DNA of 64,000 bases. Origin: a virus (lineage: Duplodnaviria > Heunggongvirae > Uroviricota > Caudoviricetes). The stretch lies in the IMG/VR virus record IMGVR_UViG_3300048574_000421; one strand, written 5' to 3'. Positions 8,032-61,912 of the stretch are shown here, piece after piece. Each line of letters opens with the position of its first letter. The stretch's first letter is position 1. A program made the translations under genes and the position numbers. The notes beneath the pieces were generated by a model. That model was given only the letters and a program-made list of their open reading frames with translations. It did not search any database and was not told the DNA's origin.

Positions 8032-11000
8032 TCAACCGCATCCTGAATAGTCAGCGCAATCAATGCACTTGAAACATCCAGCCTGCATTACTACTCTACC
8101 ACCACATTGCGGACATTTTAAACCTTTTAATTCAATACCATCACTTAATGTTTGTGATAAAAACTTTCTAACTGCTGTTAATAATGTAGAAATATTATCT
8201 CCATCAATTCCCATAAGAGAAACAAGAATATCTTCTCTTGGAATATTATGTCGCAAACACAACGATATCATTCTACCAAGTCTGTTGTGAGGATAGTCAA
8301 TATTTGCTTTACCAACTGTCTCTTTTACAATTTCATCAGAGACACCACAAGATAAAGCAAGTTTAGTTAAATTACGAGATGCTTTGTTACAAACTTTAAG
8401 TTCTTCGCCACCATATTGAGAATTCGTATAAATCCAGATACAAATAGGAAATTCTTTACGAGAATCTTCAGGCAAATAAGAGAAATGCAAATAAAACTTC
8501 TTGCCTTCTCTCTTAATTATATGAGTATCACCATTTATAAAAACATCAGGAAGTTTAATATCTTTTGCAATAATTTCTCGTTTTTCAGCTTTACCTATGT
8601 CTGATAAAACAGATTCCATAGAGCCTTCTCTATAAGTAGTAAAACCATTAAGGCCTAACTTCCAAGCTTTCAAATAAAGCTGTTTAAAATCTTCAAACGG
8701 ATATTCATTTGGAAGGTTTGCTGTTTTACTAGTACTTTGATTATTATAAAACTGAACTACAGCTTGAATTGCAAGATGGTCATCAATATTCAAATCTTTA
8801 GTAGTAATTAAATATTTAGAATGATCTTGTTCTGGAAAATTATCAAGTAACCATTGGTAACCATAATCTCTAACAATATTTATTTTACACAAACCTCGGT
8901 TATGAGGTTCATAGTAATATTCATAGTCACCAAATCTCCCTCTCCAATATTCATAATCTTTTTCTTTATAATGTTTAAGAATTTGTTTAACATTATCTTG
9001 ACTCAAATCTTCTGGCCATGTTTGACAAACAACTTTCCTCTCATACTCGATTAAATAAACAGGCTCAATCCCGTTACTTGTAACATCAGATAAAATAGAA
9101 CTATTACCAAGAGGTGGTACTGTTGTTGTTTTTGCATTTCTTGCACCATATTTTTTTAACAATTCGCGTGTTTCATCTGTTATTCTAGAAGAATTAAAAA
9201 ATTCTGTTGCTTCAAATTGTTCTTTTATATATGCTCCAAAAACACCCTTTTCTTTTGCAAGTAATGCTGATGTTTGCCAAGTAAGGTTTTCTTTCAATTG
9301 ACAGATTTTTTTTGCAAATTCTACAGCTTCTTTACTGTTGTAAGGGATTCTTAACATCATCAACGCTGAACCAAGTCCATTAATACCCATACCTATTTGA
9401 CGTAGATTGTCTATAACCCATTGATAACTTGGAAGTGGTGCATAAGTCAAATCATTAACGTTGTCTAACATTCTTGTAAAAATTCTAATATCTTCAATAT
9501 ACTCGTCAAAATCAAAATAAGTAGTTCCATCAGTTTTAATTCTGACATATTGTGTTAAATTCAAAGAACCAAGGAGACAAACAGTCCCTATACTTGCAAT
9601 ACCAGGAACTTCCCCACAATTATTAACACATATTCCACTACTTCTTAAGAATTTATCGTCATTCCAAGAAGTAAGAACGATATAATTGTGATTGTCATCA
9701 ACGGTTATATTGTAAACGTCTTCGTAACCATGAAACTCTACTTTCTTGACTTTATGATTGAAAAATGCTTCTGTTTCAAGTAAATTAGAAAATTCAGTAT
9801 AATTGCTACAATTAAATTCTTTTTGTCTAAATTTTTGCGGATATGGTAAGTTATTTGATTTACAAAATCCAAATAATTCTTGTCTTTTAGGTTTTCTTCC
9901 TATGCTTCTAGTAAAACCTACAAAATGCGATAAAAGCTCTTTTGATGTTATTTCATATGCTCTACCATTTTTTAAGCCTGATGTAGCTTTACTCATATTT
10001 TCACGATATTTCTGCTTATCTCGTAATCTATACATAGGATTGTTTTTACCAGATATATCGTGAAAACTTTGATGTTCTTGCTTTGTACACTTGACAAGGA
10101 ACTCAGGTCTATCATCTAAAGAATTAAAATTACTATGATGAATTCTATCGTCTTTAGTTATCTCTATATCTGGATTAAAAAATTCAAATATTAATCTGTA
10201 TTGTCTTCTACTTAATCTTAAACCATTTGAGCGTTTTTTGTTTGAAGTATAAGAAATTTGACGATAACCATTACTTTCATGTGAATTAAAAGGAAGAAGA
10301 CTTTCTCCTGGTTTTAAGTTTTTTAACTCGACATCACCCTTATATCTTGTAGGTATTTTATGGTCGGGTGTTGCAATAAAAACTGAATCATCATCGAGTG
10401 TAAGCTTCCAAACTTCTCTTTGTTCACCAGTAATTCTTGGGTTTCTACCCATCTTAATTTCAACTTTATCTGTGAGTTTATTTCTTGAATAAACTGGTAA
10501 ATCTTTTCCTTCTTGCGCCAATTGCTTGATTGACACGCCATTTCTGCCATCAGCTGTAGCAATAATTGAACTACCTATTATGCAAGGGTTTGTCGCTGTT
10601 ACTCGACCAAGATAAGCAATAGGATTGTTCCTCATCATATTGTCAGCAAATAAAACACCAGGTTCAGCTCTATCATAACACGATAGCATTATCAAGTCGT
10701 AAAGTTCTCTTGCTTTTATTCTCTTGAAAACTTTTCCATTAAAACTTTGTTCAAAAAAATCATCATTCTCTACAGCTTTCAAGAAATCATCAGTTAAAAC
10801 AACAGAAATATTGAATTTTGTAAGTTCACCAGAAGTTTGTTTTGCTCTAACAAATTCTTCACAGTCAGGATGTGTAACGCTTAAAGCAGCAAGCATTGCT
10901 CCTTTTCGTATTGCATTTTTTATAACTGTTTTTGCTTCTTGAAATTTATCGTCGCCTAAATAATTTTTGATTTTATCTACATAACCATCAGCATCACCTT

Positions 11001-11547
11001 GAACAATACATTGCGAAACGGCATCCCATATTTTCATATAAGCAACAACGCCAGGGTGCTTGATACCAGTTCCTTTTATAATAGAACTTCGAGGCCTAAT
11101 AAAATCAAAACTTAATCCGTAACCACCTTCTGATGCAAGTGTTTTTGCTTGCTCTACAATAGTCAAAAATATGTTTATTAAATCATCAGGGGTATCATCA
11201 GTTTCATATTCAATTGGAAACTTGATTAAGCCATTGTCAGTTTCACGCTTGTATGAGACTTTAGCATTACTAATGGGAGCAGCAACAAAACAATTTAACA
11301 ATGTTGCTTTCTCGAAAATTGTACCTACGTTAGCAGTTATTCTACCACCAGTTGTACATTTAAGACCTACAGGTTCGTTTTCAATAGTACGAACTAAAGT
11401 GTTAAAAAACTTATCTACCCAATCTTCAGGTTTTTTTTCAACAGAAGCAAGTGCTTGAGCAACTCTAAAAAAAGTTTCTTTAGGTGTTTCATTGTTATAT
11501 CTGTATTTTGATGTCCAGATTTCTCTAGCAAGTTCAGTTTTGAACAT
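8032..11547 (-). CDS. nrdJ: class II (B12-dependent) ribonucleotide reductase, intein-containing, with C-terminal TSCPD-like and Zn-ribbon domains
   Basis: GGRI, NCFV, GGYG, 'AEPGVLF', NP|CGE catalytic motif split by the intein, TTVPP.G..S, GIEP, SKTAN, G.TTYREG, C-terminal CPQC...CFKCIDC..SGC. Confidence 0.9.
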   Translation of the reverse strand: MFKTELAREIWTSKYRYNNETPKETFFRVAQALASVEKKPEDWVDKFFNTLVRTIENEPVGLKCTTGGRITANVGTIFEKATLLNCFVAAPISNAKVSYKRETDNGLIKFPIEYETDDTPDDLINIFLTIVEQAKTLASEGGYGLSFDFIRPRSSIIKGTGIKHPGVVAYMKIWDAVSQCIVQGDADGYVDKIKNYLGDDKFQEAKTVIKNAIRKGAMLAALSVTHPDCEEFVRAKQTSGELTKFNISVVLTDDFLKAVENDDFFEQSFNGKVFKRIKARELYDLIMLSCYDRAEPGVLFADNMMRNNPIAYLGRVTATNPCIIGSSIIATADGRNGVSIKQLAQEGKDLPVYSRNKLTDKVEIKMGRNPRITGEQREVWKLTLDDDSVFIATPDHKIPTRYKGDVELKNLKPGESLLPFNSHESNGYRQISYTSNKKRSNGLRLSRRQYRLIFEFFNPDIEITKDDRIHHSNFNSLDDRPEFLVKCTKQEHQSFHDISGKNNPMYRLRDKQKYRENMSKATSGLKNGRAYEITSKELLSHFVGFTRSIGRKPKRQELFGFCKSNNLPYPQKFRQKEFNCSNYTEFSNLLETEAFFNHKVKKVEFHGYEDVYNITVDDNHNYIVLTSWNDDKFLRSSGICVNNCGEVPGIASIGTVCLLGSLNLTQYVRIKTDGTTYFDFDEYIEDIRIFTRMLDNVNDLTYAPLPSYQWVIDNLRQIGMGINGLGSALMMLRIPYNSKEAVEFAKKICQLKENLTWQTSALLAKEKGVFGAYIKEQFEATEFFNSSRITDETRELLKKYGARNAKTTTVPPLGNSSILSDVTSNGIEPVYLIEYERKVVCQTWPEDLSQDNVKQILKHYKEKDYEYWRGRFGDYEYYYEPHNRGLCKINIVRDYGYQWLLDNFPEQDHSKYLITTKDLNIDDHLAIQAVVQFYNNQSTSKTANLPNEYPFEDFKQLYLKAWKLGLNGFTTYREGSMESVLSDIGKAEKREIIAKDIKLPDVFINGDTHIIKREGKKFYLHFSYLPEDSRKEFPICIWIYTNSQYGGEELKVCNKASRNLTKLALSCGVSDEIVKETVGKANIDYPHNRLGRMISLCLRHNIPREDILVSLMGIDGDNISTLLTAVRKFLSQTLSDGIELKGLKCPQCGGRVVMQAGCFKCIDCADYSGCG
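9619..10584 (-). mobile_element. intein (322 aa) with HNH-like endonuclease in NrdJ
   Basis: Starts 'CIIGSSIIATADG', block B 'ATPDHKI', HNH-like 'IHHSNFNSLDDRPEFL', ends 'VYNITVDDNHNY...ICVNN' before CGE. Confidence 0.9.
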
Positions 11548-11566
11548 GATTAGTTTTTCCTTAGCG

Positions 11567-11749
11567 TTAATAGCGTTCAAATTCTTTTATGTGAGTGGAG
11601 AGTAATTCCGAAGTAAAAATTAATGCTTGAAGCTCTTTGTTAGTGAACTTAAATCGTTCTACTTTTTCATTAGAACCTTCAATGATATTTCCAATATGTT
11701 CTAATGCATTAATGAAATCTTGTTTTTTTTCTAAAAGTTTGTCATTCAT
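11567..11749 (-). CDS. hypothetical protein
   Basis: 60-aa ORF in operon context. Confidence 0.45.
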   Translation of the reverse strand: MNDKLLEKKQDFINALEHIGNIIEGSNEKVERFKFTNKELQALIFTSELLSTHIKEFERY

Positions 11750-23657: not shown

Positions 23658-23909
23658 TTAACGTCTTGGAGAGTTTTCTCTTTCTCTAGCAGGAGTCACA
23701 GTGATGCTACGACCATTCATAGAAGTATTATTAGCAGACAATGCACTATCTGAATTAGCCATCTCAACAAAACCAAAACCGCGTGATCTTCCAGTGTCTC
23801 TGTCTTGAATAATTCTCACTGAAGCAACAGGGCCATACTTCTCAAAAAATGCTTTCAGTTCGTCTTCAGAAGTTTGAAACGGAAGATTACCTACATAAAG
23901 TTTACCCAC
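23658..23909 (-). CDS. RRM RNA-binding protein
   Basis: RNP2 'LYVGNL', RNP1 'RGFGFVEM'. Confidence 0.9.
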   Translation of the reverse strand: MGKLYVGNLPFQTSEDELKAFFEKYGPVASVRIIQDRDTGRSRGFGFVEMANSDSALSANNTSMNGRSITVTPARERENSPRR

Positions 23910-24043
23910 AAGAAACCTCCATATAAAAAAATAAAAACTCCAAACAATAGGAGTCGAGTTTTGTAATTATATATCTGCGCACGTGTTGTTTGATTTTTTT
24001 TATTGATGAAGCATACAATAATACTTGTATCGTCTTAAAAAAA

Positions 24044-24117
24044 TACCCTGGGAGAGAATTGAACTCCCAACAGCAAAATTAGAAATTTTGTACTCTATCC
24101 ATTTGAGTTACCAGGGC
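24044..24117 (-). tRNA. tRNA-Arg(UCU)
   Basis: GCCCTGG acceptor, CAAAA-TTTCTAA-TTTTG anticodon arm, GGGAG-TTCAATT-CTCTC T arm; no CCA. Confidence 0.9.
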
Positions 24118-24165
24118 AAGATATTGAATTATATTATTGTCTCTGCATTATTGTCACAATATGTA

Positions 24166-25215
24166 TCATGTAATTTCTTTGATAACTTTATGCTTATTAC
24201 TCCACAAACTATTCTGTTTCAAGACTGTAACAATTACTCTTTCATAAACATTACATCTTTTAGCAAGTTCTTCAATCGAGATAAAATATTTATGAAATTC
24301 TTTAATTATTTTATTTATTATTTGTTTGTTTCTTATTTTTGAACATGCTAAAGTGTGTCTTTTAAATGTCGATTCATTATGTAAAACTTTTCCACAAACA
24401 CAAGTCTTTCTAGTTATACATTCGTTTGGAAAATGCTTATTAAAAAATCTCTTGACAAAATGTTTTGTTTTCTTCCATTTTTTTGATAGTTTTAAACTAA
24501 TATTATCGCTACCTAAAAATAAACTTGCATCATTTAAGTATTTGTCTAATTTACTCTTAACTTTGCTTTCTTTAAATTTCAATTCTTTTAACTTTTTTTC
24601 TTGTTCAACTTTAAGACGTCTACATTGATACAAAGTATAATCTTCAACACAAATTTCAGTTTGTTTTGTATTAGACAAAATTTTTAAAATTTGTTTTATT
24701 CTTGTTTTAGGTGTTTTAATAAAATCTTTCCAAACTATACGTAATACTTTTACACCTTGTTTATTTATATACAAATCTTTTTTTGTATCGAAATTTTTTC
24801 TTTTTTCATGTTGTTTCCCATCAATTTCAACAGCTAGTTTTAATTTAAAAAAATAAAAATCAACACGATAAAAACTAAAAGGAAATTCTCTAAAAAAATC
24901 TTTATCTTTTTCATAACCATTATTAATTAAAATTTTTTCAAAAAACTCTTCAGCATAAGAAAATCTATTCCAACCCTTTGATCTTCCTATCATTATCTCA
25001 GATTGTGTTCTTTGAATGTCTTTAAGAATTTCATCAAGTTTTGCTTTTGTACACCATTTTTCTTTGTAAAGTTGTTTTTTTGTTGCTCCCTCAAGATATC
25101 TTTTTCTTACTTCATTTATTTTTATTTGCTCAATACAAGCTTTAAAATGTCTAGAATAACTTGATATGCGAATTTCTTTACCACATTTTTCACAATTTTT
25201 ATAATTCATAAGCAT
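24166..25215 (-). CDS. DUF559/Vsr-like free-standing endonuclease 1
   Basis: 'SYAEEFF...FREF...YRVDF...LAVEIDGKQH...D..KD......G.KVLRI.W'; N- and C-terminal Zn-finger-like motifs. Confidence 0.8.
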   Translation of the reverse strand: MLMNYKNCEKCGKEIRISSYSRHFKACIEQIKINEVRKRYLEGATKKQLYKEKWCTKAKLDEILKDIQRTQSEIMIGRSKGWNRFSYAEEFFEKILINNGYEKDKDFFREFPFSFYRVDFYFFKLKLAVEIDGKQHEKRKNFDTKKDLYINKQGVKVLRIVWKDFIKTPKTRIKQILKILSNTKQTEICVEDYTLYQCRRLKVEQEKKLKELKFKESKVKSKLDKYLNDASLFLGSDNISLKLSKKWKKTKHFVKRFFNKHFPNECITRKTCVCGKVLHNESTFKRHTLACSKIRNKQIINKIIKEFHKYFISIEELAKRCNVYERVIVTVLKQNSLWSNKHKVIKEIT

Positions 25216-25226
25216 CTTATTAAAAA

Positions 25227-25298
25227 TACTCCTGCCAGGAATTGAACCTGAATCTTGCGATTCGTAATCGCGTACTTTATCCTTTAAGCTACAGGAGC
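25227..25298 (-). tRNA. tRNA-Arg(ACG)
   Basis: GCTCCTG/CAGGAGT acceptor; loop TTACGAA; TCAGG-TTCAATT-CCTGG. Confidence 0.9.
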
Positions 25299-25303
25299 GA
25301 AAA

Positions 25304-25375
25304 AGCGGTAGAGCAGATTCGAACTGCTGACATCTTCTTTGGCAAAGAAGGATTCTACCTCTGAACTACTACCGC
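25304..25375 (-). tRNA. tRNA-Gly(GCC)
   Basis: GCGGTAG/CTACCGC, U73; CTTCT-TTGCCAA-AGAAG. Confidence 0.92.
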
Positions 25376-25674
25376 ATAACTTGTCGTTTTTCGTTTGCTA
25401 ATTTATTTACATACAAATCAACTGCATTGTGACCCAAAATTCTTTTTGATTCGAATTCATCATAATTTTGATCTGCAACTTCTATTAACCACGGATACGT
25501 TTTAATAATTTTCATTAAAATTAACAACTCAGGACTTGGATCTTCAGTACTTAATGAACCCATTTGAAGATCAAGTGCTCTTTCAACACTCGCTTGTGTA
25601 TATCCGTAATTTGCATTCAATTCAACTAAAAATTCTTCTATAAATGTCATATAAACTTTCATAAAAATAAGCAA
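25369..25674 (-). CDS. hypothetical protein between the two tRNA-Gly genes
   Basis: 101-aa ORF; its TAG stop lies inside the tRNA-Gly(GCC) acceptor strand. Confidence 0.5.
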   Translation of the reverse strand: MLIFMKVYMTFIEEFLVELNANYGYTQASVERALDLQMGSLSTEDPSPELLILMKIIKTYPWLIEVADQNYDEFESKRILGHNAVDLYVNKLANEKRQVMR

Positions 25675-25740
25675 CCGATCAGATTTGAACTGATGACTTC
25701 GCTTTGGAAGAGCAAGATGTTTCCACTACAACACGGTTGC
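25670..25740 (-). tRNA. tRNA-Gly(UCC)
   Basis: GCAACCG/CGGTTGC, U73; TTGCT-CTTCCAA-AGCGA; ATCAG-TTCAAAT-CTGAT. Confidence 0.88.
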
Positions 25741-26620
25741 AATAATATTCTTTCCAATCTAAACCTTGATATTTTTTACTTCCTGTTCTTTTTTTAATAT
25801 ATGTTTGTTTATCAATATCAGGGAAGTTTAAACGTAAAAATTTTCTGATACTAGTTCCAGATATTCCTAATTTATTTTTTGCTTCTTTAAGCCATCCTCG
25901 TTTAGACATATCAATAGTTTTAAGAATTTCTAATTTGTTTTTAATTTCTTCTTGTCTTTTATCTTCTTTTTGTTTTTTCTTAAAATTTTCTCGTTTAATT
26001 ATTTCATCTAACAAGTTTAATGTCTTCAATTGTGTTTTTGTCAACTTATTTATTTCTATTTCTTGTTCTTTTTCGTTTTTTAAAACTCTTAAAGTTTCTT
26101 CTAATATTTGTTTTGTATTATTGAATAACACTTTAAAAGAAATTCTTAACACCTTATAACCTAAAGATTTTAATAATTCGTCCTTAGATTTATCTGAAAT
26201 TTGTCTATTTTTATATTTATAATGTTGTTGTCCATCTATCTCAATTGCAAGTTTTAATTTTAAGAAAAAGAAATCAATTCTATATTTTGAAACTTGAAAC
26301 TCTCTAACATAATCAATATTTGTTTCAAACCCGTTATTTATCAAAAAATTTTCAAAAAACTCTTCTGCATAAGAACGATTTTTCCAGCCTTTACCTTTTG
26401 ACAATTTCATTGCTTCACTTGCTGTTCTAAATTTACCTTTTAATGCGTAACTTACAAGACTATAAGTGAAACCTTTTTCTACTATTTCTCTACTGCACAA
26501 GCCTTGGTCATAAAATAAACATATTTGTTCGCGCTCGTTTTGTGTTATGCACACATGATTTGAAAAACTTTGCTTTATAATAGTACGTAAACAACGAGAA
26601 CATGTTTGTGTTTTTGACAT
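25679..26620 (-). CDS. DUF559/Vsr-like free-standing endonuclease 2
   Basis: 'SYAEEFF...VREF...YRIDF...LAIEIDGQQH...D..KD..L..LGYKVLRI'; C-terminus translates through tRNA-Gly(UCC). Confidence 0.8.
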   Translation of the reverse strand: MSKTQTCSRCLRTIIKQSFSNHVCITQNEREQICLFYDQGLCSREIVEKGFTYSLVSYALKGKFRTASEAMKLSKGKGWKNRSYAEEFFENFLINNGFETNIDYVREFQVSKYRIDFFFLKLKLAIEIDGQQHYKYKNRQISDKSKDELLKSLGYKVLRISFKVLFNNTKQILEETLRVLKNEKEQEIEINKLTKTQLKTLNLLDEIIKRENFKKKQKEDKRQEEIKNKLEILKTIDMSKRGWLKEAKNKLGISGTSIRKFLRLNFPDIDKQTYIKKRTGSKKYQGLDWKEYYCNRVVVETSCSSKAKSSVQI

Positions 26621-26640
26621 AAATTACCAAATCAAAAAAA

Positions 26641-26730
26641 TGGCTGACAGGGAGGGACTTGAACCCCCACAGAGTTTCACCTCGTACGCCACATTAACAG
26701 TGTGGTCACTTGCCATTAGTGTACCTGTCA
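26641..26730 (-). tRNA. tRNA-Asn(GUU) with long variable arm, CCA encoded
   Basis: TGACAGG/CCTGTCA-G-CCA; CCACA-CTGTTAA-TGTGG; 20-nt variable region. Confidence 0.85.
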
Positions 26731-26747
26731 GTAAAAGAATATTTAAA

Positions 26748-26819
26748 CGGAACATAGGGGAATTGAACCCCTGTCGTCAGATTGACAGTCTGGCATCCTA
26801 ACCACTAGACGAATGCTCC
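26748..26819 (-). tRNA. tRNA-Asp(GUC)
   Basis: GGAGCAT/ATGTTCC-G; loop CTGTCAA. Confidence 0.92.
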
Positions 26820-26827
26820 ATATTTTT

Positions 26828-26900
26828 CAGATAGAAAGGGATTTGAACCCCTAATCAACTGGTTAACAGCCAGTCCGCTTGCCAATTTGCGTACCTATCT
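26828..26900 (-). tRNA. tRNA-Asn(GUU)
   Basis: AGATAGG/TCTATCT-G; ACTGG-CTGTTAA-CCAGT. Confidence 0.88.
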
Positions 26901-26918
26901 ATAATTCAAAGAACTAAA

Positions 26919-26991
26919 TGGAGCCAGAGAGGCTTGAACTCTCAACCCCTGGCTTGCAAAGCCAGTGCTCTTCCAATTGAGCTATGGTCCC
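26919..26991 (-). tRNA. tRNA-Ala(UGC)
   Basis: GGG.../...TCC-A with G3:U70; CTGGC-TTTGCAA-GCCAG. Confidence 0.92.
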
Positions 26992-27001
26992 AAAATTTTT
27001 T

Positions 27002-27259
27002 CTAATCTAATTCTGAAAAACTATCGTTATGTTTTCTTTCTTGCAAAGATAAACCATAAACTTTTCTTTGATTACCGCACATAATACAAGAACAAAGTTT
27101 AGTTGTATTTCGTCTTTTTCTTGACGCCATCAACAAACGTTCTTCTCTTTCTTTCGGATCTTTTTCAAAATAAAATCCATTCCAATAACGATAACCTCGT
27201 TTTTTGCCTTTGGTATCTCCAACGACAAAACGTTCTAACCGATTTCTCGGATGTGACAT
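27002..27259 (-). CDS. small basic protein with CSCxxC motif
   Basis: TAAGGAG RBS; 'TTKLCSCIMCGNQRK'. Confidence 0.6.
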   Translation of the reverse strand: MSHPRNRLERFVVGDTKGKKRGYRYWNGFYFEKDPKEREERLLMASRKRRNTTKLCSCIMCGNQRKVYGLSLQERKHNDSFSELD

Positions 27260-27291
27260 AATGACTCCTTACTGCATCCTCTGGTGGGATG

Positions 27292-27309
27292 CTATTGTTT
27301 GGATGCCAT
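27292..27309 (-). CDS. minigene MASKQ*
   Basis: AAGGAGG RBS, ATG GCA TCC AAA CAA TAG, then hairpin GCATCC/GGATGC before the next RBS. Confidence 0.4.
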   Translation of the reverse strand: MASKQ

Positions 27310-27332
27310 TATATCCTCCTTTGTTAAATTAA

Positions 27333-27414
27333 TAGGAACGGCGGGATTTGAACCCACATTTACAACATACCAGTTACGATTATCCACCTTATAAGAGTGG
27401 CTCGGTACATTCCT
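27333..27414 (-). tRNA. non-canonical tRNA-Ile(UAU)-like RNA (relocated D-arm)
   Basis: AGGAATG/CGTTCCT-A acceptor; CCACT-CTTATAA-GGTGG; GTGGG-TTCAAAT-CCCGC; D-loop-like AACTGGT lies after the anticodon arm. Confidence 0.7.
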
Positions 27415-27420
27415 GTAAAA

Positions 27421-27497
27421 TCTTCTCGATTGGAGTTGAACCAATATGTCACCAATTACCCTTTCTACACCGTATCAGAGTGAGGGGATACGAGAAG
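27421..27497 (-). tRNA. non-canonical tRNA-Ile(GAU)-like RNA (relocated D-arm)
   Basis: CTTCTCG/CGAGAAG-A; CACT-CTGATAC-GGTG; ATTGG-TTCAACT-CCAAT; D-loop-like AATTGGT lies after the anticodon arm. Confidence 0.7.
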
Positions 27498-28484
27498 TTG
27501 TTTGCTATAATAAGTTTTCCAGTCGCAATTTTGATATTTCTTAACACTTGTTCTTGGTTTGAAATATGTTTGTTTGTCAATTTCAGGAAAATTCAATCGT
27601 AAAAACCTTCTTATATAAGTACGCGATACTTTAAGTTTTTTTGATAAACTAGTTATCCAACCCCTTTTAGTAATATCTGAATTTTCTAAAATCATTTGGA
27701 GTTTCTTTTTTATTGTTTCTTCTTTTAGTTTTTTAATTATTTGTTTTTCTTTTAACTTCTGTTCTTGATCTTGTTTTTCTTTAATTTTTTTGAATTTATA
27801 ATATTCAATTACACATTCAGAAAAATTATATAATTTAGGTTGTAAATCAAAACTATCAAGATATTCTAAAAATTGTTTTTCAATTTGTTCAAATTCATTT
27901 TTTAATTTAAACCCAGGAATTCTAAAAACTTTCCAACCTAATTTTATCAGTTTTTCATTTCTTTTGATATCAATTTGTTTTTGACGCTCACAAAAAATGT
28001 GTTGTGAACCATCAATTTCTACATCAAGTTTTATATTTAAGAATGCAAAATCTAAATAATAAGGAAAAATGCTATATTCTCTTATTATATCGAATTTTTC
28101 AGAAAGACTGTTTCTTTCAATGATATCTGAAAATATCTTTTCAATATAAGTTTGTTTATTTCTTCGCCATTCGTTTGTACGTTGCATTGACATATATTTT
28201 TTTCTGCCATCACGTATTCTTTGTCTTGTTTGTTCTGAAACTTTTCTTGAGTTCTTATGATAAAAAATCTTCATTTGTTGTGATAAACTTCTCTTATTGT
28301 TTTTTATCAAGTACTCTACTGTAGATTTATTGTAGCCCATCTTAATTATTTTACCTGCACTCAATAAATCTTCATAGTATAATTTTAAAATTTCTTTATT
28401 TTCTTGCTCATTGCATTTTTTAATATGATGTGCATAGTTAGATTTTGTTTTAAAAACTTTTCCACAAATTTTGCAATTCCACAT
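27465..28484 (-). CDS. DUF559/Vsr-like free-standing endonuclease 3
   Basis: N-term C2H2-like 'CKICGKVF...HH..KC'; 'REY...YYLDFAF...LDVEIDGSQH...D..RN..L..LGWKVFRI'; ATG at 28484 with AAGGAG RBS; C-terminus reads into the Ile(GAU)-like RNA. Confidence 0.8.
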   Translation of the reverse strand: MWNCKICGKVFKTKSNYAHHIKKCNEQENKEILKLYYEDLLSAGKIIKMGYNKSTVEYLIKNNKRSLSQQMKIFYHKNSRKVSEQTRQRIRDGRKKYMSMQRTNEWRRNKQTYIEKIFSDIIERNSLSEKFDIIREYSIFPYYLDFAFLNIKLDVEIDGSQHIFCERQKQIDIKRNEKLIKLGWKVFRIPGFKLKNEFEQIEKQFLEYLDSFDLQPKLYNFSECVIEYYKFKKIKEKQDQEQKLKEKQIIKKLKEETIKKKLQMILENSDITKRGWITSLSKKLKVSRTYIRRFLRLNFPEIDKQTYFKPRTSVKKYQNCDWKTYYSKQLLVSPHSDTV

Positions 28485-28549
28485 TTGAACTCCTTTAGTA
28501 GCGTCAGACAAGCACTCTAATCTAGCTTATTGATAAAAGGAGTACAAAT
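28483..28549 (-). promoter_or_regulatory. RBS-sequestering hairpin of endonuclease 3
   Basis: ATTTGTACTCCTTT pairs with AAAGGAGTTCAAAT(G), covering the RBS and start codon. Confidence 0.55.
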
Positions 28550-28567
28550 AGTTTTCAAAACACTAAA

Positions 28568-28579
28568 TTTCAAAGAGCA
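28568..28579 (-). promoter_or_regulatory. boxA-like antitermination site
   Basis: TGCTCTTTGAAA; similar AGTTCTTTGAAT at 26904-26915 and AGCTCTTTTAAA at 28770-28781. Confidence 0.45.
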
Positions 28580-28605
28580 AAATTCAAGCATAATAAACTT
28601 GAAAA

Positions 28606-28677
28606 TACTCCTACCGAGAATCGAACTCGGATGCCAACAGTGAAAATGTTGTGACTTAGCCATTGGTCTATAGGAGC
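28606..28677 (-). tRNA. tRNA-Glu(UUC)
   Basis: GCTCCTA/TAGGAGT; CAACA-TTTTCAC-TGTTG. Confidence 0.92.
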
Positions 28678-28692
28678 AATTTTATTTTAAAA

Positions 28693-28765
28693 AGCCCAGG
28701 ACAGGGATCGAACCCGCGACATCTACATTACAAGTGTAGCGCTCTACCAACTGAGCTACCTGGGC
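28693..28765 (-). tRNA. tRNA-Thr(UGU)
   Basis: GCCCAGG/CCTGGGC; CTACA-CTTGTAA-TGTAG. Confidence 0.95.
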
Positions 28766-28781
28766 AAAATTTAAAAGAGCT

Positions 28782-28816
28782 AAAAAGAAACGGACCCTGA
28801 ATTTCTTCAAGGTCCG
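28782..28816 (-). terminator. attenuator terminator upstream of the tRNA array
   Basis: CGGACCTTGAA-GAAA-TTCAGGGTCCG-TTTCTTTTT. Confidence 0.85.
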
Positions 28817-28851
28817 CATCCTAAATTTTATTTTTATATTAGGATGCGGAC
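28812..28851 (-). promoter_or_regulatory. antiterminator hairpin
   Basis: Perfect 13-bp GTCCGCATCCTAA/TTAGGATGCGGAC; its 3' strand overlaps the terminator 5' strand (CGGAC). Confidence 0.8.
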
Positions 28852-28852
28852 A

Positions 28853-28930
28853 TTACCCTCCTGTTTCGTCATTACCGTTTATGGTAATACGATTTTCGCG
28901 GGCTCTGTTTGCTATCCTTGTTGTTTTCAT
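28853..28930 (-). CDS. leader peptide MKTTRIANRARENRITINGNDETGG
   Basis: 25-aa ORF; residues 3-25 are only T, R, I, A, N, E, G, D, the amino acids of the downstream tRNAs; its stop is 1 nt before the antiterminator. Confidence 0.8.
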   Translation of the reverse strand: MKTTRIANRARENRITINGNDETGG

Positions 28931-28936
28931 GTTTTT

Positions 28937-28965
28937 AATATAACAAATAAAAATGTAAATGTAAA
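28937..28965 (-). promoter_or_regulatory. sigma70-type promoter giving a leaderless transcript
   Basis: TTTACA-17 nt-(TG n)TATATT-6 nt-ATG; no SD before the leader ATG. Confidence 0.65.
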
Positions 28966-28986
28966 GGTTTTTTTATAAAAAATATT

Positions 28987-29196
28987 ATGACATTTACAAA
29001 ACAACTTGATGAAGCAAAATTTTGTATTGAAACAATGAAAACAATCGGTACTTTTCAAAACCATAAAATTGGAATTGTTAATATAGGAAAAGATACGTTA
29101 ACTTTAATAAATGGAAGAGTTTGTCTTTATAGAGAAGATGGTAATACACTGACAACAGAATATGCTCATAGTAAAAAAAGATTGAAGAGAATTTAA
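28987..29196 (+). CDS. hypothetical protein, possibly frameshifted
   Basis: The -1 frame after the A7 run near 29173 stays open for about 38 more codons. Confidence 0.35.
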   Translation: MTFTKQLDEAKFCIETMKTIGTFQNHKIGIVNIGKDTLTLINGRVCLYREDGNTLTTEYAHSKKRLKRI

Positions 29197-29714
29197 GAAA
29201 AAACAATTTACTGACAACATATTCTACTTGCGTTTGTGTACCTAAGAAACATATAATTCCTTTTCGTTCGAAATACGAAAAAATATTTGGCTGAAAAACA
29301 TAAAGAATCGATTTATATAATAAGGAAACAAATAAAAATGTTTGGCAATAAACTTAAAAACATTCGATATTCACTCAAAATTCAGCAAGGAGGTGTTTAA
29401 AACTCAAAAAAGCATTTAGATCTTTCTATGTTGACTGTCAAAGCAGTAGCATTATAGTACATTAGTTAGTGAAAAAAACAAAAGTTTGTGTTTGTACTGA
29501 GAAAGTTCTAAACAATATCTCACCTAAAATTACTGCTTTCTGATTTGAATATCAAATTCAAATCAAACTACAACTTTGCACTTGTTATCTAAGACTAAGG
29601 TCTGAAAAACACAAGTCTCCTGTAGTTACAAAGCGGGTCCGTTATACTGAGGAAAAAATCGGTATAAAGATGTACTCGTTGTGTAATGTTTAACTACAAA
29701 AAAGGAGACTTAGA

Positions 29715-30055: not shown

Positions 30056-31099
30056 TTATAATAATCTATTAGTTTTGATTATTTTGTAAAGAATTTCGAC
30101 AAATTCTGTATCAAATTCAATAGATCTTCCTTCAAATAAAACTTGTAAAGCAAATTCTATACTTTGTGCTTTTCTATAGGGTCTGTTTGAGACTAAAGAA
30201 TCGAATGTGTCAGCAACAGCAAGAATTCTTGCACCTGTAGGTATTGCTTTTTCTTTTAGTTTATGCGGATAACCTTTTCCATTCCATCTTTCATGATGAT
30301 GTAAAACATAGTCGCTGATCTTACCTACATTATCGACAGGTTTAATTATTTTATAAGACAGTTCAGAGTGTTTTTTGATTAATTCGTATTCTTCATCTGT
30401 AAGTTTGTCTTTTTTAAAAAGAATCTCGTCTTTAACACCAATTTTGCCTATATCATGTAAACGTCCAGCTATAGCAACGTCTTCAATAAATGCTTCATCA
30501 TCAGTGTATTCTAAACAAATTTTCTCAGAAAGTTCGCCGACTTTTTCAGAATGATTTTTTGTATACTCATCTCTTTGTTCTAAAGCATTTGTTAAAGAAG
30601 TAAGCGTATTGAAAAAAATCTTATCTCTTTCTTTTTGAATTACAACAATTTTTGCTCTTAAATTCTCAGCTAAATGTGAATTTCTTCTTAAATTTTTTGT
30701 GTTTCTAGAAGCTTGTAACAATAATAAACCCAATGTTGTTAATTGAAAAGGTTTATTTAAGAATGCATATATATTCTTTTTTATAATTGTTGTGATAAAT
30801 TCATCTGTATTAAAACCTGTCATTAAAATAATAGTAAGCTCTGGATCGATTTTATTAGCTTCATCTACAAAATCAAAACCTGTACACCCATCATCAAGAA
30901 AAATGTCGCAAATAACTACATCAAACTGGTGACTTTCTACAAGGTTTATAGCTTTAGTTAGATTTTCAGCTGTAAAACAATATCCACCATGATTTTCTAT
31001 AAAAGTTTTAAGAAGATCAAGTTGTATATTATCATCATCAACAACAAGAACTGTCAAGTTCATTAAAATAGATGTGTGTTGTATATCTATAATGTTCAT
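30056..31099 (-). CDS. response regulator receiver + HD-GYP phosphodiesterase (RpfG-like)
   Basis: REC 'VLVVDDD...D...IILMTG...KPF'; 'YT..HS..V...LHDIGKIG...HHHERWNGKGYP...ARILAVADTFD...RPYR'. Confidence 0.9.
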   Translation of the reverse strand: MNIIDIQHTSILMNLTVLVVDDDNIQLDLLKTFIENHGGYCFTAENLTKAINLVESHQFDVVICDIFLDDGCTGFDFVDEANKIDPELTIILMTGFNTDEFITTIIKKNIYAFLNKPFQLTTLGLLLLQASRNTKNLRRNSHLAENLRAKIVVIQKERDKIFFNTLTSLTNALEQRDEYTKNHSEKVGELSEKICLEYTDDEAFIEDVAIAGRLHDIGKIGVKDEILFKKDKLTDEEYELIKKHSELSYKIIKPVDNVGKISDYVLHHHERWNGKGYPHKLKEKAIPTGARILAVADTFDSLVSNRPYRKAQSIEFALQVLFEGRSIEFDTEFVEILYKIIKTNRLL

Positions 31100-31247
31100 T
31101 ATTTTACCTTTAAACTTGACAATGCATATTGAATCAAAATACACTTATACCCTTGTTTATATTATACCAACGCGTATTAAAAATAATGACAACAAAAAAA
31201 ATTTTTAAAAAAAATATCACTTTTGCTAACTTTGATATATATTTCTC

Positions 31248-31393
31248 TAGAACAATGCTCTTTTAACAGTGATTGCTTACATTACTTTATAGCTCAGTTG
31301 GTTAGAGCGACCGCCTTAAAAGCAGTAAGTCTCAGGTTCGAATCCTGAAAAAGTAGCCAAAATCTAGCATTTACAACTCAGAGTATTGTTCTA
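31248..31393 (+). ncRNA. Y-RNA-like unit 1 (encloses a complete tRNA-like module at 31283-31359, anticodon UAA, GCCA end)
   Basis: 14-bp terminal stem TAGAACAATGCTCT/AGAGTATTGTTCTA; scaffold motifs TTTAAC, GCTTACAT, AGCA, AACTC. Confidence 0.7.
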
Positions 31394-31415
31394 ATTTTAA
31401 TAACATGAAAATTAT

Positions 31416-31568
31416 TAAAACTGCTCTTTAACAACAGGTGCTTACACATGGTTTAAGTTAGTCCGAAAGACTAATGAAGACGTTCGAATCGTCTATTCCC
31501 CGTTAAGGAAATTTAAGTTTCTTTAACGGGGAATAAAAAGTTCAGCACGTGAAACTCGAGCAGTTTTA
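31416..31568 (+). ncRNA. Y-RNA-like unit 2 (D-loop, hairpin, T-arm, long closed stem)
   Basis: Terminal stem TAAAACTGCTC/GAGCAGTTTTA; same scaffold motifs; AGACG-TTCGAAT-CGTCT T-arm. Confidence 0.65.
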
Positions 31569-31582
31569 TTTTTTGAAATAAT

Positions 31583-31713
31583 CAAGTGTTCTTTAACTTT
31601 AAATGCTTACATGCTTTTTAGCTCAATGGTCGAGCAATTATTTGGGTATAATGGGTTCTTGGTTCAAGTCCAAGGGAAGCGACAAAAAATAGCATTTTGA
31701 ACTCGAACACTTG
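31583..31713 (+). ncRNA. Y-RNA-like unit 3 (degenerate tRNA-like module, Pro(UGG)-like loop)
   Basis: Terminal stem CAAGTGTTC/GAACACTTG; GCTC/GAGC D-arm; CTTGG-TTCAAGT-CCAAG T-arm. Confidence 0.65.
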
Positions 31714-31730
31714 TTTTTTATAAAGGAAAT

Positions 31731-31881
31731 AAAGTCGTGTCTTTTAACGCTGAAAGCATACATTTTTTTCGTCAGTTCAAATCTGACTATCTCCTCGGTG
31801 AGGGGATATGGCCGAGCGGTTTAAGGCAACCAACTGCTAATTGGAACACAAAAATAGCTCTCAAAACTCAGACATGACTTT
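31731..31881 (+). ncRNA. Y-RNA-like unit 4 (circularly permuted tRNA-Ser(GCU)-like module)
   Basis: Terminal stem AAAGTCGTGTCT/AGACATGACTTT; order is T-arm, loop-closed acceptor, D-arm, anticodon arm. Confidence 0.7.
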
Positions 31882-48595: not shown

Positions 48596-48607
48596 TTGGA
48601 GAATCTC

Positions 48608-51001
48608 ATGTTTGACTTAAAAGGAAAATATGGTTCAGCTCACGTAATGATTGATTATGTCGAAGAAGCTTGTATGTCGCAAATACTTGGTTTTCTTAAT
48701 CATCCAGTCTTTACTAATCAGATAGCTATAATGCCTGATACACATGCAGGAAAAGGAAGTGTTGTTGGATTTACAATGCCAATGACAGAAAAAATCATTC
48801 CTAATGTAATAGGCGTAGATATAGGATGTTTCATTGACAAAACAGAAGTCCAACTTGCTGATAATAGAAAATTAAATTTTTTAGAATTGATTAAAGAACA
48901 AGAAGAGGGAAAAGAAAATTTTTGTTTCGCTAAAGATCAAACAGGAAATATTGTAATAACAAAAATTTTGTCTGTGTTTTTTACAAAAATAGTTGACAAA
49001 CTTGTGAAGATAGTACTAGATAATGACGAAGTGATATACAGTACTGAAGAACAAATTTTTTTCTTATTAGATAACAACGAAATTCAAGCGCAAAATTTGA
49101 ATATTGAACAATCATTATTTCCTCTTTACCTTAAAAAAGCAAAAGAAGTAGACAATATTTCAAAAAACTCTAAATATCTAAAAGAGACAGAATACTTTGT
49201 AGTTTATAATCCAAACACAAAAAAATACGATTATGTCCATTGTCTTGCTGATGATTATAATACAAGAAGGAAAACTCAAAACAACTTAAAAATATTTGTT
49301 CGACATCATAAAGATTTTAACAAATTCAATAACAACCCAACAAATATTGAAAGGGTCTCTTGGCGCCAACATTGGAAGATTCATTCGCAGCATGCTTCAA
49401 TTCAAAATAAACAAGGAAAATCTGGTTGGAAAGTGTCTTGGACAAGGCACTTAGAAAGATTCAGGAGAATGTCTTCTGAAAAAATGAAAAAATTAAGTCA
49501 AAATCCAGATTTTCAAAAAATTAGAAATAAAGCATCTGCAAAAACCTTTGAAAACTTTTGTAAAACAGAAAAATTTAAAGAACAATCGAAACATGCAGGA
49601 AAAAGAGGTAAAAAATATCTTTGCGCATATAACAAATCAAAAACAGGTATCGAAAAGTCAACAGAAGTAGGAAATCGCGTTTATGAATGTCCAGTTTGTA
49701 ACAAAATCTTAATTGGTCCTTTTGCAGTAAACTCGCATAAGAAAATGCACCCAGATCTTACTTTTCAAGAGTTCAAATTAACCAAAAATCATAAAATAAA
49801 ATCAATCGAAATATTAAATTGTGAACCTACAAAAGTGTACTGTTTAAAAGTTGAAGAACATAGTAATTTTGCATTAGCTGCAGGAGTCTTTGTTCATAAC
49901 TGTGGAATGAGCTCACTTAACATTGGTTCAGCATTACCAATTTCTTATCAAGAACTTGATCATAAGATAAGACAAAGAATTCCTTTTGGGTTTGACACAA
50001 ATGAAAGATCTGTCATTGATTTTGCAAAAGAATTCCCATGGAAAAAGGTAAATGCAACAGCTCAAAATTTTGCTCTTTCTTATCAAAGAAAATTTAATTC
50101 AAGTATTACACTTCCACGCTTTGACTTTAATTGGTTTGAGAAAAAATGCGACATAATTGGTTGTGATCTCGGGAGAGCTATAAAAAGTCTTTGTTCGCTT
50201 GGTGGTGGTAACCATTTTATTGAACTTGGTTTGTCGACAAAAAATGAATATTGGCTTACTATTCACACTGGTTCACGTAACTTAGGAAAATGTATTTGTG
50301 AATATTGGCAAGATATTGCAATCAAAAAACTTAAAAGAGGAAATAAAGAAGATCGTCAATCGCAAATTGAAAAACTTAAAAATACTCTAAAAGGAAAAGA
50401 ACTTTTTGAAGCTATAAAGCAAGTCAAAGAAAAAGAGCCTTTAGTTTTAAACTTTTCTGACGATTTGTGCTACCTTGAAGGACAAGATGCGCAACAGTAT
50501 TTGTTTGACATGATTTTTTCTCAAATTTATGCACAAGTCAATAGACAGTTGATTTCAAAAAAGATCGTAGAAATTTTGAATGTTCCTGTTATTGATTCAA
50601 TAGAAACAGTTCACAATTTTATAGATTTTGAAGATTTCATTATCAGAAAAGGATCAATTCGTTCTTACGAAAACGAGCGTATGATTATTCCTTTTAATAT
50701 GCGTGACGGAATTCTTGTTTGTACAGGAAAATCAAATCCTGAATGGAATTTTTCTGCACCACATGGTGCAGGACGTCTCTTATCAAGATCACAAGCAAAG
50801 AAAAAATTAGATATGAATGAGTTTTCAAAACAAATGTCGGCAATTTTTTCTACATCAGTTAATATGTCAACTCTTGATGAAGCGCCTGATGCTTACAAAA
50901 ACCCAAAAATAATCGAGGAAGCAATCGAGCCTACAGCTTTGATAATTGAAAGATTAGTGCCTGTCATGAACATGAAAGATTCAAAAGGTACTGACGATTA
51001 A
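48608..51001 (+). CDS. rtcB: RtcB RNA ligase, intein-containing
   Basis: MPDTHAG, VDIG|CGM, GGGNHF.E, HTGSR, HN, RKG, SAPHGAGR, DEAP.AYK. Confidence 0.92.
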   Translation: MFDLKGKYGSAHVMIDYVEEACMSQILGFLNHPVFTNQIAIMPDTHAGKGSVVGFTMPMTEKIIPNVIGVDIGCFIDKTEVQLADNRKLNFLELIKEQEEGKENFCFAKDQTGNIVITKILSVFFTKIVDKLVKIVLDNDEVIYSTEEQIFFLLDNNEIQAQNLNIEQSLFPLYLKKAKEVDNISKNSKYLKETEYFVVYNPNTKKYDYVHCLADDYNTRRKTQNNLKIFVRHHKDFNKFNNNPTNIERVSWRQHWKIHSQHASIQNKQGKSGWKVSWTRHLERFRRMSSEKMKKLSQNPDFQKIRNKASAKTFENFCKTEKFKEQSKHAGKRGKKYLCAYNKSKTGIEKSTEVGNRVYECPVCNKILIGPFAVNSHKKMHPDLTFQEFKLTKNHKIKSIEILNCEPTKVYCLKVEEHSNFALAAGVFVHNCGMSSLNIGSALPISYQELDHKIRQRIPFGFDTNERSVIDFAKEFPWKKVNATAQNFALSYQRKFNSSITLPRFDFNWFEKKCDIIGCDLGRAIKSLCSLGGGNHFIELGLSTKNEYWLTIHTGSRNLGKCICEYWQDIAIKKLKRGNKEDRQSQIEKLKNTLKGKELFEAIKQVKEKEPLVLNFSDDLCYLEGQDAQQYLFDMIFSQIYAQVNRQLISKKIVEILNVPVIDSIETVHNFIDFEDFIIRKGSIRSYENERMIIPFNMRDGILVCTGKSNPEWNFSAPHGAGRLLSRSQAKKKLDMNEFSKQMSAIFSTSVNMSTLDEAPDAYKNPKIIEEAIEPTALIIERLVPVMNMKDSKGTDD
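48827..49900 (+). mobile_element. intein (358 aa) with HNH-like endonuclease in RtcB
   Basis: Starts 'CFIDKTEVQLAD', HNH 'VRHHKDFNKFNNNPTNI', ends 'VYCLKVEEHSNFAL.AGVFVHN' before CGM. Confidence 0.92.
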
Positions 51002-61817: not shown

Positions 61818-61836
61818 AAAAACTCCTTGAAAAAAA

Positions 61837-61907
61837 TGCCTCTGCACAGATTCGAACTGTGGTGGGTTGTTTTAGAGACAACTGCTTTACCGCTAAGCTA
61901 CAGAGAC
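61837..61907 (-). tRNA. amber suppressor tRNA (anticodon CUA)
   Basis: GTCTCTG/CAGAGGC-A; GCTT/AAGC D-arm; GTTGT-CTCTAAA-ACAAC; CACAG-TTCGAAT-CTGTG. Confidence 0.88.
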
Positions 61908-61912
61908 ATTTG

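Follow-up and report, generated by a model that had tools for sequence, protein, structure and literature searches.

How a virus that carries a set of its own transfer RNA (tRNA) genes regulates their transcription is the question raised by a locus in the genome of an uncultured giant phage (Caudoviricetes; IMG/VR virus record IMGVR_UViG_3300048574_000421). Phage tRNA genes are usually discussed as a compensation for codon usage or as an escape from tRNA-cleaving defences, and to our knowledge the control of their expression is largely unknown. Within the stretch of 64,000 nucleotides (nt) analysed here, hereafter the window, which is part of a 119-kb record estimated to be 52% complete and holds all of its tRNAs, an array of tRNA genes lies behind a promoter, a short open reading frame (ORF) and an intrinsic terminator. 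Judging from the sequence and from modelled folds, we contend, with a probability of roughly 0.8, that this element is a ribosome-mediated leader-peptide transcription attenuator that gates the phage tRNA operon by sensing the supply of charged cognate tRNAs. Such an attenuator had been proposed in a preliminary description of the locus, and the proposal is strengthened by the arrangement of the alternative helices (1:2, 2:3 and 3:4), by the matching of leaders to their own arrays in relatives and by compensatory changes.

All coordinates of the attenuator and the array refer to the minus strand. The promoter combines a -35 box TTTACA (28965-28960), a 17-nt spacer and an extended -10 box TGtTATATT (28945-28937, the -10 proper being 28942-28937). 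The A of the leader ATG at 28930 is the seventh nucleotide past the -10 box, with 6 nt between them, so that a leaderless start is plausible and the transcript probably begins at this very A, in line with the earlier placement of the transcription start at about the ATG. The 25-codon ATG ORF, which ends with TAA at 28855-28853, therefore appears to offer a usable translation start directly behind the promoter.

The amino acid composition of this leader is enriched in codons that report on the product it would control. The background was taken from the codon usage of 59 long ORFs of the record, in which 0.52 of the residues belong to the array set of eight amino acids {T,R,I,A,N,E,G,D}, and against it 23 of the 24 post-start leader residues fall within that set (binomial P = 3.6e-6). 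The preliminary description had stated that all residues following the initial Met-Lys belong to this set, which holds, the sole outsider being Lys (AAA) at codon 2, a position at which most of the related leaders have AAA as well. Its estimate of a chance probability of about 1e-8 was based on an assumed background of 45%; the enrichment beyond chance stands, and the measured background yields the less extreme value given above. Under standard wobble, 20 of the 24 codons can be decoded by tRNAs of the array, compared with 9.9 expected. Each of the 10 distinct anticodons detected in the array has a cognate codon in the leader, as had been claimed for a list that also included Ile-GAU, of which only a remnant exists here. 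The whole 119-kb record contains 618 ATG ORFs with a length of 20-35 codons, and the leader ranks first among them at 0.96, the next ORF reaching 0.74.

Related leaders were sought in two ways. Pattern scans of IMG/VR, both exact and degenerate, for the hairpin and the leader C-terminus returned one relative only, G001 (424 kb, 98% complete), and metagenome contigs were collected via the neighbouring response-regulator/HD-GYP gene, giving L023, L016 and L007, which carry the same type of leader as the window (A-type), and the more distant L019. G001 harbors three minus-strand tRNA arrays (A, B and C), each behind a promoter, a short ORF and a terminator of its own. Array A and its leader, MKTIRIANRTRENRIAINGNDETGG, are orthologous to those of the window. 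Array B encodes Pro-UGG, Gln-CUG, Pro-CGG, Pro-GGG, Arg-CCU and Gln-UUG, and its leader MKIFFQQPQPQQPRNITWRGLLLK, which is followed by a terminator, is preceded by TTTACA-17-TGTTATATT-6 nt-ATG, the same geometry as in the window; the run CAA CAG CCG CAA CCA CAA CAA CCC AGG in this leader supplies an exact Watson-Crick codon for all six anticodons (6/6). For array C, with 17 distinct anticodons (His, Tyr, Lys, Phe, Leu, Val, Trp, Ser, Met, Thr-CGU and Cys), a 47-codon ORF followed by a terminator covers 17/17. Similarly, leader 1 of L019, MKLSITSQKLSLRLGAAMHRGLSLCSYFILRSTSAGRLRLNT, covers 15/15 anticodons of a Phe/Leu/Ser/His/Met/Tyr/Cys/Ile/Arg array, and leader 2, MSNRTLRVKRVWQVIDRQDKRRDREGFI, covers 7/7 of a Lys/Arg/Val/Gln/Trp/Asp array.

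The leaders of G001 arrays B and C and the two leaders of L019 are unrelated in sequence, and each comes with a terminator and a leader-borne antiterminator. By simulation, full coverage of its own array has a probability of 1e-3 to <2.5e-6 per leader. When five leaders were set against five arrays, coverage of 100% throughout was found in the true pairing alone (1 of 120 permutations), and the off-diagonal matches were at or below background. The co-variation of leaders with array content, which the preliminary description had set in advance as one of the points on which the idea should stand or fall, is thus borne out by these four independent cases. This result also bears on another interpretation, namely that the ORF encodes a functional small peptide followed by a partly efficient terminator, the array being transcribed by read-through or from other promoters and the amino acid match having no regulatory meaning. 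Conservation of the peptide in five related contigs would suit it, but four leaders of unrelated sequence match their own array and no other, the replacements within A-type leaders appear free so long as they remain within the tRNA set, and a helix competing with the terminator begins 1 nt past the stop codon; we regard this interpretation as highly improbable.

Among the five A-type orthologues the reading frame is kept, and the replacements observed (T/I at codon 4, N/D at codon 8, A/T at codon 10 and T/I/A at codon 16) all stay within the array set and are accompanied by synonymous changes. Two putative modes of initiation are apparent in these sequences: in the window, L023 and L007 the -10 box is followed by 6-7 nt and the ATG, a leaderless geometry, and in G001 and L016 a 12-nt insert bearing an AAGGAAA Shine-Dalgarno sequence stands ahead of the leader. 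The kept frame, the within-set replacements, the two start modes and the AAA second codon are supportive of selection for translation, and we infer from them that the leader is translated.

The RNA between the leader and the array has the arrangement expected of a ribosome-controlled switch. As previously described, and as confirmed by the sequence, a perfect 13-bp stem (hairpin A, formed by regions 2 and 3) begins 1 nt past the stop codon, and its 3' strand overlaps a GAAA-capped terminator. The overlap consists of GCGGAC, the last 6 nt of region 3, which also form the base of the 5' arm of the terminator. The terminator stem (28817-28790) is followed by the U-tract TTCTTTTT (28789-28782), which lies 16 nt before the start of tRNA-Thr at 28765, so that a putative intrinsic terminator stands between the leader and the first gene it would control. 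The RNA from leader to terminator has a minimum free energy (MFE) of -52 kcal/mol (z = -7.4 against shuffles), and the MFE fold of the free RNA contains both the 1:2 and the 3:4 helices. The energies of the individual helices are -22.0 for hairpin A, -19.8 for the terminator and -28.7 kcal/mol for the 1:2 domain alone, values that are comparable, as expected of a switch.

With hairpin A intact, the terminator is cut to a 6-bp remnant of -5.2 kcal/mol that is located 6 nt from the U-tract. Since region 2 begins 1 nt past the stop codon, a ribosome at the stop would cover about 9 of its 13 nt. Folding with and without a ribosome footprint, a check suggested at the outset, gave the pattern foreseen: placing the modelled ribosome at the stop codon yields the full terminator, and placing it on codons 4-16 yields hairpin A. 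In these models the placement of the stop codon and the 1:2 pairing of untranslated RNA are both as an attenuator would need them, and antiterminator and terminator behave as mutually exclusive, with the caveat that their overlap is limited to 6 nt and that a compromise structure exists at equilibrium. A further hairpin within the leader ORF (helix 2) is 95% paired across orthologues, with A-U to G-U changes, and it may act as an RNA polymerase pause hairpin.

The switch can be envisaged as follows. Transcription would start at or beside the ATG of the 25-codon leader, whose codons are those of the downstream tRNAs (Thr, Arg, Ile, Ala, Asn, Glu, Gly and Asp). If decoding is fast, the ribosome would reach TAA and mask region 2, the 3:4 terminator would form and RNA polymerase would halt 16 nt before tRNA-Thr. 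If any of the charged cognate tRNAs is scarce, the ribosome would stall in the leader and mask region 1, allowing hairpin A (2:3) to form and to take up the GCGGAC base of the terminator, with read-through into the array as the consequence. Untranslated RNA would fold into 1:2 and 3:4 and would be terminated. The predicted outcome is a demand-driven negative feedback of the phage on its own tRNA supply, which would respond to any one of eight amino acids in the manner of an OR-gate. It is from the sequence that we infer the direction of the switch and its physiological trigger.

The very strong folding (z = -7.4) together with the high nucleotide conservation could also indicate that the RNA is structured and non-coding, for example a riboswitch, a tRNA-binding leader of the T-box kind or a signal for processing, the frame and its composition being by-products. 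Searches of Rfam returned only tRNA at the gathering score over the window, and a threshold of E <= 5 over 23800-29100 added chance hits, with no T-box, riboswitch or known leader among them; as there is no match to the T-box covariance model (RF00230), the element is not a T-box. Given that no Rfam family other than tRNA emerged even at this permissive threshold, that the match of codons to anticodons is specific to the frame and is seen again in leaders of unrelated sequence and structure, and that start signals are maintained in two ways (leaderless or Shine-Dalgarno), a purely structural role is extremely improbable.

The predicted competition between helices is also apparent in the other cassettes and in the covariation of the A-type leaders. 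In the four unrelated leaders a complement of the terminator 5' arm sits in the last codons of the ORF (pairs: GGAGAGG/CCUCUCC; GGUGGAGC/GCUCCACC; CGGCGGGGC/GCCCCGCCG; CCGGGAGGGG/CCCCGCCCGG). In folds of RNA ending before the terminator 3' arm, the 5' arm is held by this complement, and it is released only with a modelled ribosome on the last 8-10 codons or on the stop, a behaviour that is clear-cut in G001 arrays B and C and in both L019 leaders. Among the A-type orthologues, hairpin A retains 13/13 pairs in every sequence (100% of cells) with two double changes (U-A to C-G and C-G to U-A), the 1:2 domain has 96.7% of cells paired in four orthologues, and the terminator of L016 carries two double changes (A-U to G-C and A-U to U-A) and two one-sided ones. 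In L016 the shared segment reads ACGGGC instead of GCGGAC, and the A-to-G change within it is accompanied by T-to-C changes in both the region-2 and the region-4 partners, a dual compensation of one region-3 base that is as predicted by two competing helices.

These observations are relevant to the further proposal that the leader senses decoding and acts on a different output, be it RNase processing, precursor stability or Rho access, or that the logic is inverted and efficient translation leads to read-through. It draws on the small 2:3/3:4 overlap of the A-type leader, on equilibrium folds in which most of the terminator persists wherever the modelled ribosome is placed, and on the general knowledge that tRNA precursors are heavily processed. 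However, all five independent cassettes have a G+C-rich hairpin followed by a U-tract, the position of the leader-borne complement of the 5' arm in each is such that its disruption takes a ribosome at the end of the ORF, and two competing helices are indicated by the region-3 base, which covaries with its partner in either of them. A different output or an inverted logic is thus decidedly unlikely.

Several points weigh against the attenuator as formulated above. Equilibrium folding of the full A-type leader with a modelled ribosome gave no clean on/off behaviour of the terminator, and, with an overlap of just 6 nt, a 9-bp hairpin A and a 10-bp terminator are permitted to coexist. The choice between them would consequently have to be made kinetically, as it is in trp, with some leakiness possible, and for this reason we relied on folds of truncated transcripts (a kinetic-style approach), on helix energies and on covariation. 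The covariation counts are themselves supportive and not conclusive, because they come from five closely related sequences, and 29 to 37 of 500 shuffled controls reached the same values. Direct reading of the sequence found no Shine-Dalgarno motif ahead of the window leader, so that the model requires leaderless initiation. The codons ACC and GCC can be read by the UGU and UGC tRNAs of the array only through extended wobble.

In addition, the fine-scale tracking of arrays by leaders is imperfect, the A-type leader remaining constant while arrays lose or gain single tRNAs. Array A of G001 is without tRNA-Ala, none being detected genome-wide in this 98% complete genome, and its leader keeps GCA and GCC; the L016 array is without Thr-UGU and Ile-GAU according to ARAGORN and Infernal, and its leader keeps Thr and Ile codons; and Glu-CUC occurs in the arrays of both G001 and L016, with no GAG codon in their leaders.

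The array itself (Table 1) comprises 11 minus-strand tRNAs, 10 identified by ARAGORN and one (UAU) by Infernal, and not the 12 reported in the preliminary description, although the remnant of the twelfth, Ile-GAU, is present at the place claimed for it. The remnant keeps a 7-bp acceptor stem, the T arm and the CTGATAC loop, has no D arm, and overlaps or abuts the end of a DUF559 endonuclease-like ORF. In L023, a contig from activated sludge whose neighbouring gene is 99% identical, all 12 tRNAs are intact and in the order described earlier. Relative to the 74-nt copy of L023, the Ile-UAU tRNA of the window has a 21-nt insert in the variable region.

Table 1. Positions of the attenuator elements and of the tRNAs they precede, in window coordinates
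Feature	Position	Strand	Remark or source
Sigma70-like promoter	28937-28965	-	score 10/12, extended TG present
Leader ORF, 25 codons plus TAA, peptide MKTTRIANRARENRITINGNDETGG	28853-28930	-	codons cognate to array tRNAs
Region 1, codons 5-11, AGGAUAGCAAACAGAGCCCGC	28898-28918	-	predicted to pair with region 2 in free RNA; putative anti-antiterminator
Internal hairpin within leader ORF (helix 2), CGUAUUACC-AUAAAC-GGUAAUGACG	28866-28892	-	predicted fold
Region 2 (5' arm of hairpin A), DNA GTCCGCATCCTAA, listed as GUCCGCAUCCUAA	28839-28851	-	begins 1 nt past stop
Region 3 (3' arm of hairpin A), DNA TTAGGATGCGGAC, listed as UUAGGAUGCGGAC	28812-28824	-	perfect pairing with region 2
Intrinsic terminator (3:4), GCGGACCUUGAA-GAAA-UUCAGGGUCCGU then UUCUUUUU	28782-28817	-	12 pairs, 6 G-C
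Controlled tRNA array (putative)	24043-28765	-	ARAGORN and Infernal
Thr-UGU	28765-28693	-	ARAGORN
Glu-UUC	28678-28605	-	ARAGORN
Ile-GAU remnant	~27502-27421	-	called by neither ARAGORN nor Infernal
Ile-UAU, atypical, 82 nt	27414-27333	-	Infernal only
Ala-UGC	26992-26918	-	ARAGORN
Asn-GUU	26901-26827	-	ARAGORN
Asp-GUC	26820-26747	-	ARAGORN
Second Asn-GUU, atypical, 90 nt	26730-26641	-	ARAGORN
Gly-UCC	25740-25670	-	ARAGORN
Gly-GCC	25375-25304	-	ARAGORN
Arg-ACG	25298-25227	-	ARAGORN
Arg-UCU	24118-24043	-	ARAGORN

Interleaved with the tRNAs are three DUF559 endonuclease-like ORFs and one ORF of 85 amino acids. The former, which are DUF559/Vsr-like, are located at 24166-25215, 25679-26620 and 27465-28484 (minus strand), and one of them also has a C2H2 zinc finger. 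L023 has no endonuclease ORF between its Glu and Ile tRNAs, and in G001 an HNH endonuclease ORF (L003:9237-10043) lies between the terminator of the attenuator and tRNA-Thr. These DUF559 and HNH ORFs are probably homing elements that reshuffle the array and drive tRNA turnover faster than the leader adapts.

Other features of the surroundings deserve mention. The gene diverging from the leader promoter (28987-29400, plus strand) encodes 69 amino acids in the window and 105 in G001 (L003:8683-9000), and past about 29205 the coding sequence of the window carries on in a different frame, i.e., it is frameshifted or split; a search with the 69-amino-acid product gave no matches. The neighbouring gene used to collect contigs (30056-31144, minus strand) is a fusion of a response-regulator receiver with HD-GYP and likely encodes a cyclic di-GMP (c-di-GMP) phosphodiesterase; about 17 metagenome contigs of the phage group carry it at 51-99% identity. 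A diverged A-like cassette is located at the end of another contig (L008:1-112, minus strand), where TTTACA-17-TATATT is followed by MKSIRIIETVAGRCITNNGKGD... with Ser, Val, Cys and Lys codons in addition; the array, which would be predicted to include tRNAs for these amino acids too, lies past the contig end.

On the plus strand, a motif TCTTTAAC-N(2-12)-GCTTACA is repeated at 31240-31760, with looser copies at about 31249 and 31738, and precedes a tRNA-Leu(UAA), an unusual tRNA whose 'anticodon' was called with 2 nt (31612-31683) and intervening hairpins; it has two exact matches compared with 0.01 expected, and a role as phage promoter or as processing signal is possible. The genes for an RtcB RNA ligase (48596-51001, plus strand) and for the large subunit of ribonucleotide reductase (8032-11580, minus strand) are interrupted by inteins, and the presence of RtcB alongside a large tRNA set hints at tRNA repair. 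An amber-suppressor-type tRNA with anticodon CUA ('Pyl' according to ARAGORN) is found at 61836-61908 (minus strand) and is conserved in G001 (1278-1350). Genome-wide recoding of TAG, which such a tRNA might suggest, is unsupported, as TAG read-through barely lengthens the ORFs.

When the region was compared with cultured phages by blastn, the tRNAs were the sole matches, and a tblastn search with a protein labelled 'polymerase' by PHROGs led to poly(ADP-ribose) polymerase-like genes, with no close cultured relative or host. The cultured jumbo phage XacN1 of Xanthomonas has 60 tRNA hits, about 30 per terminal repeat, that lie a few nucleotides behind co-directional ORFs, and the part of it that was inspected (L088, 28500-50500) has no obvious cassette of promoter, leader and terminator, which suggests that the attenuator design is not universal among tRNA-rich phages.

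Enterobacteria possess multivalent attenuators in which one leader reports on several amino acids, such as those of thr (Thr/Ile) and ilvGMEDA (Ile/Leu/Val), in addition to trpL, hisL, leuL and pheL. The phage element is closest to the multivalent thr and ilvGMEDA leaders, and every structural feature of these that could be tested was found in it: a short ORF close to the promoter in which several amino acids are represented by regulatory codons, the helices 1:2, 2:3 and 3:4 as alternatives, an intrinsic terminator that precedes the first structural gene, and a stop codon placed where a finishing ribosome blocks the antiterminator. It differs from them in what it would control. All described leader-peptide attenuators known to us govern amino acid biosynthesis or synthetase genes, whereas 11-12 tRNAs and homing-endonuclease-like ORFs are found downstream here, and because the controlled genes are tRNAs the product would feed back directly on the signal, namely the speed of decoding. 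Unlike the enterobacterial leaders, the phage leader also samples eight amino acids (up to 11 in relatives) with about one codon per anticodon and no run of a single codon, is borne by a phage, and is probably initiated without an untranslated leader.

T-box riboswitches, which lie upstream of aminoacyl-tRNA synthetase and amino acid genes in Firmicutes, likewise sense the state of a specific tRNA through a terminator/antiterminator switch, but theirs is a direct contact with uncharged tRNA, made by a specifier codon and the T-box sequence and independent of translation, whereas the signal here would be a translated frame. The pheM attenuator of E. coli pheST (phenylalanyl-tRNA synthetase) resembles the phage element in that leader-peptide attenuation acts on a gene of the translation apparatus, and differs from it in sensing one amino acid and in controlling a protein-coding synthetase operon that is cellular and not viral. 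We found no published account of leader-peptide attenuation of tRNA genes in a full-text search of the literature, most subscription journals being outside its coverage.

It can be speculated that the attenuators, one per array, provide a modular audit of the host tRNA pool for the purpose of counter-defence. Each block of replacement tRNAs would then be switched on when its host tRNAs are destroyed or withheld by anticodon nucleases, other tRNA-targeting defences or starvation responses, and the partition into separately gated blocks would reflect which host tRNAs fail together; we consider this extension unlikely.

The leader could also serve as a readout of array boundaries and of atypical tRNAs, as illustrated by the ATA codons of the window leader, which support the assignment of the odd UAU tRNA to Ile. 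If the attenuator reading is true, such leaders would represent compact multi-input sensors of decoding capacity that could be of use in synthetic biology, and leader-peptide attenuation, an old paradigm of bacterial regulation, would be extended to RNA genes and to viruses. For the phages themselves it would mean a self-tuning supply circuit in which charged tRNA turns off its own synthesis, and it would offer a testable handle on when giant phages need their own tRNAs.

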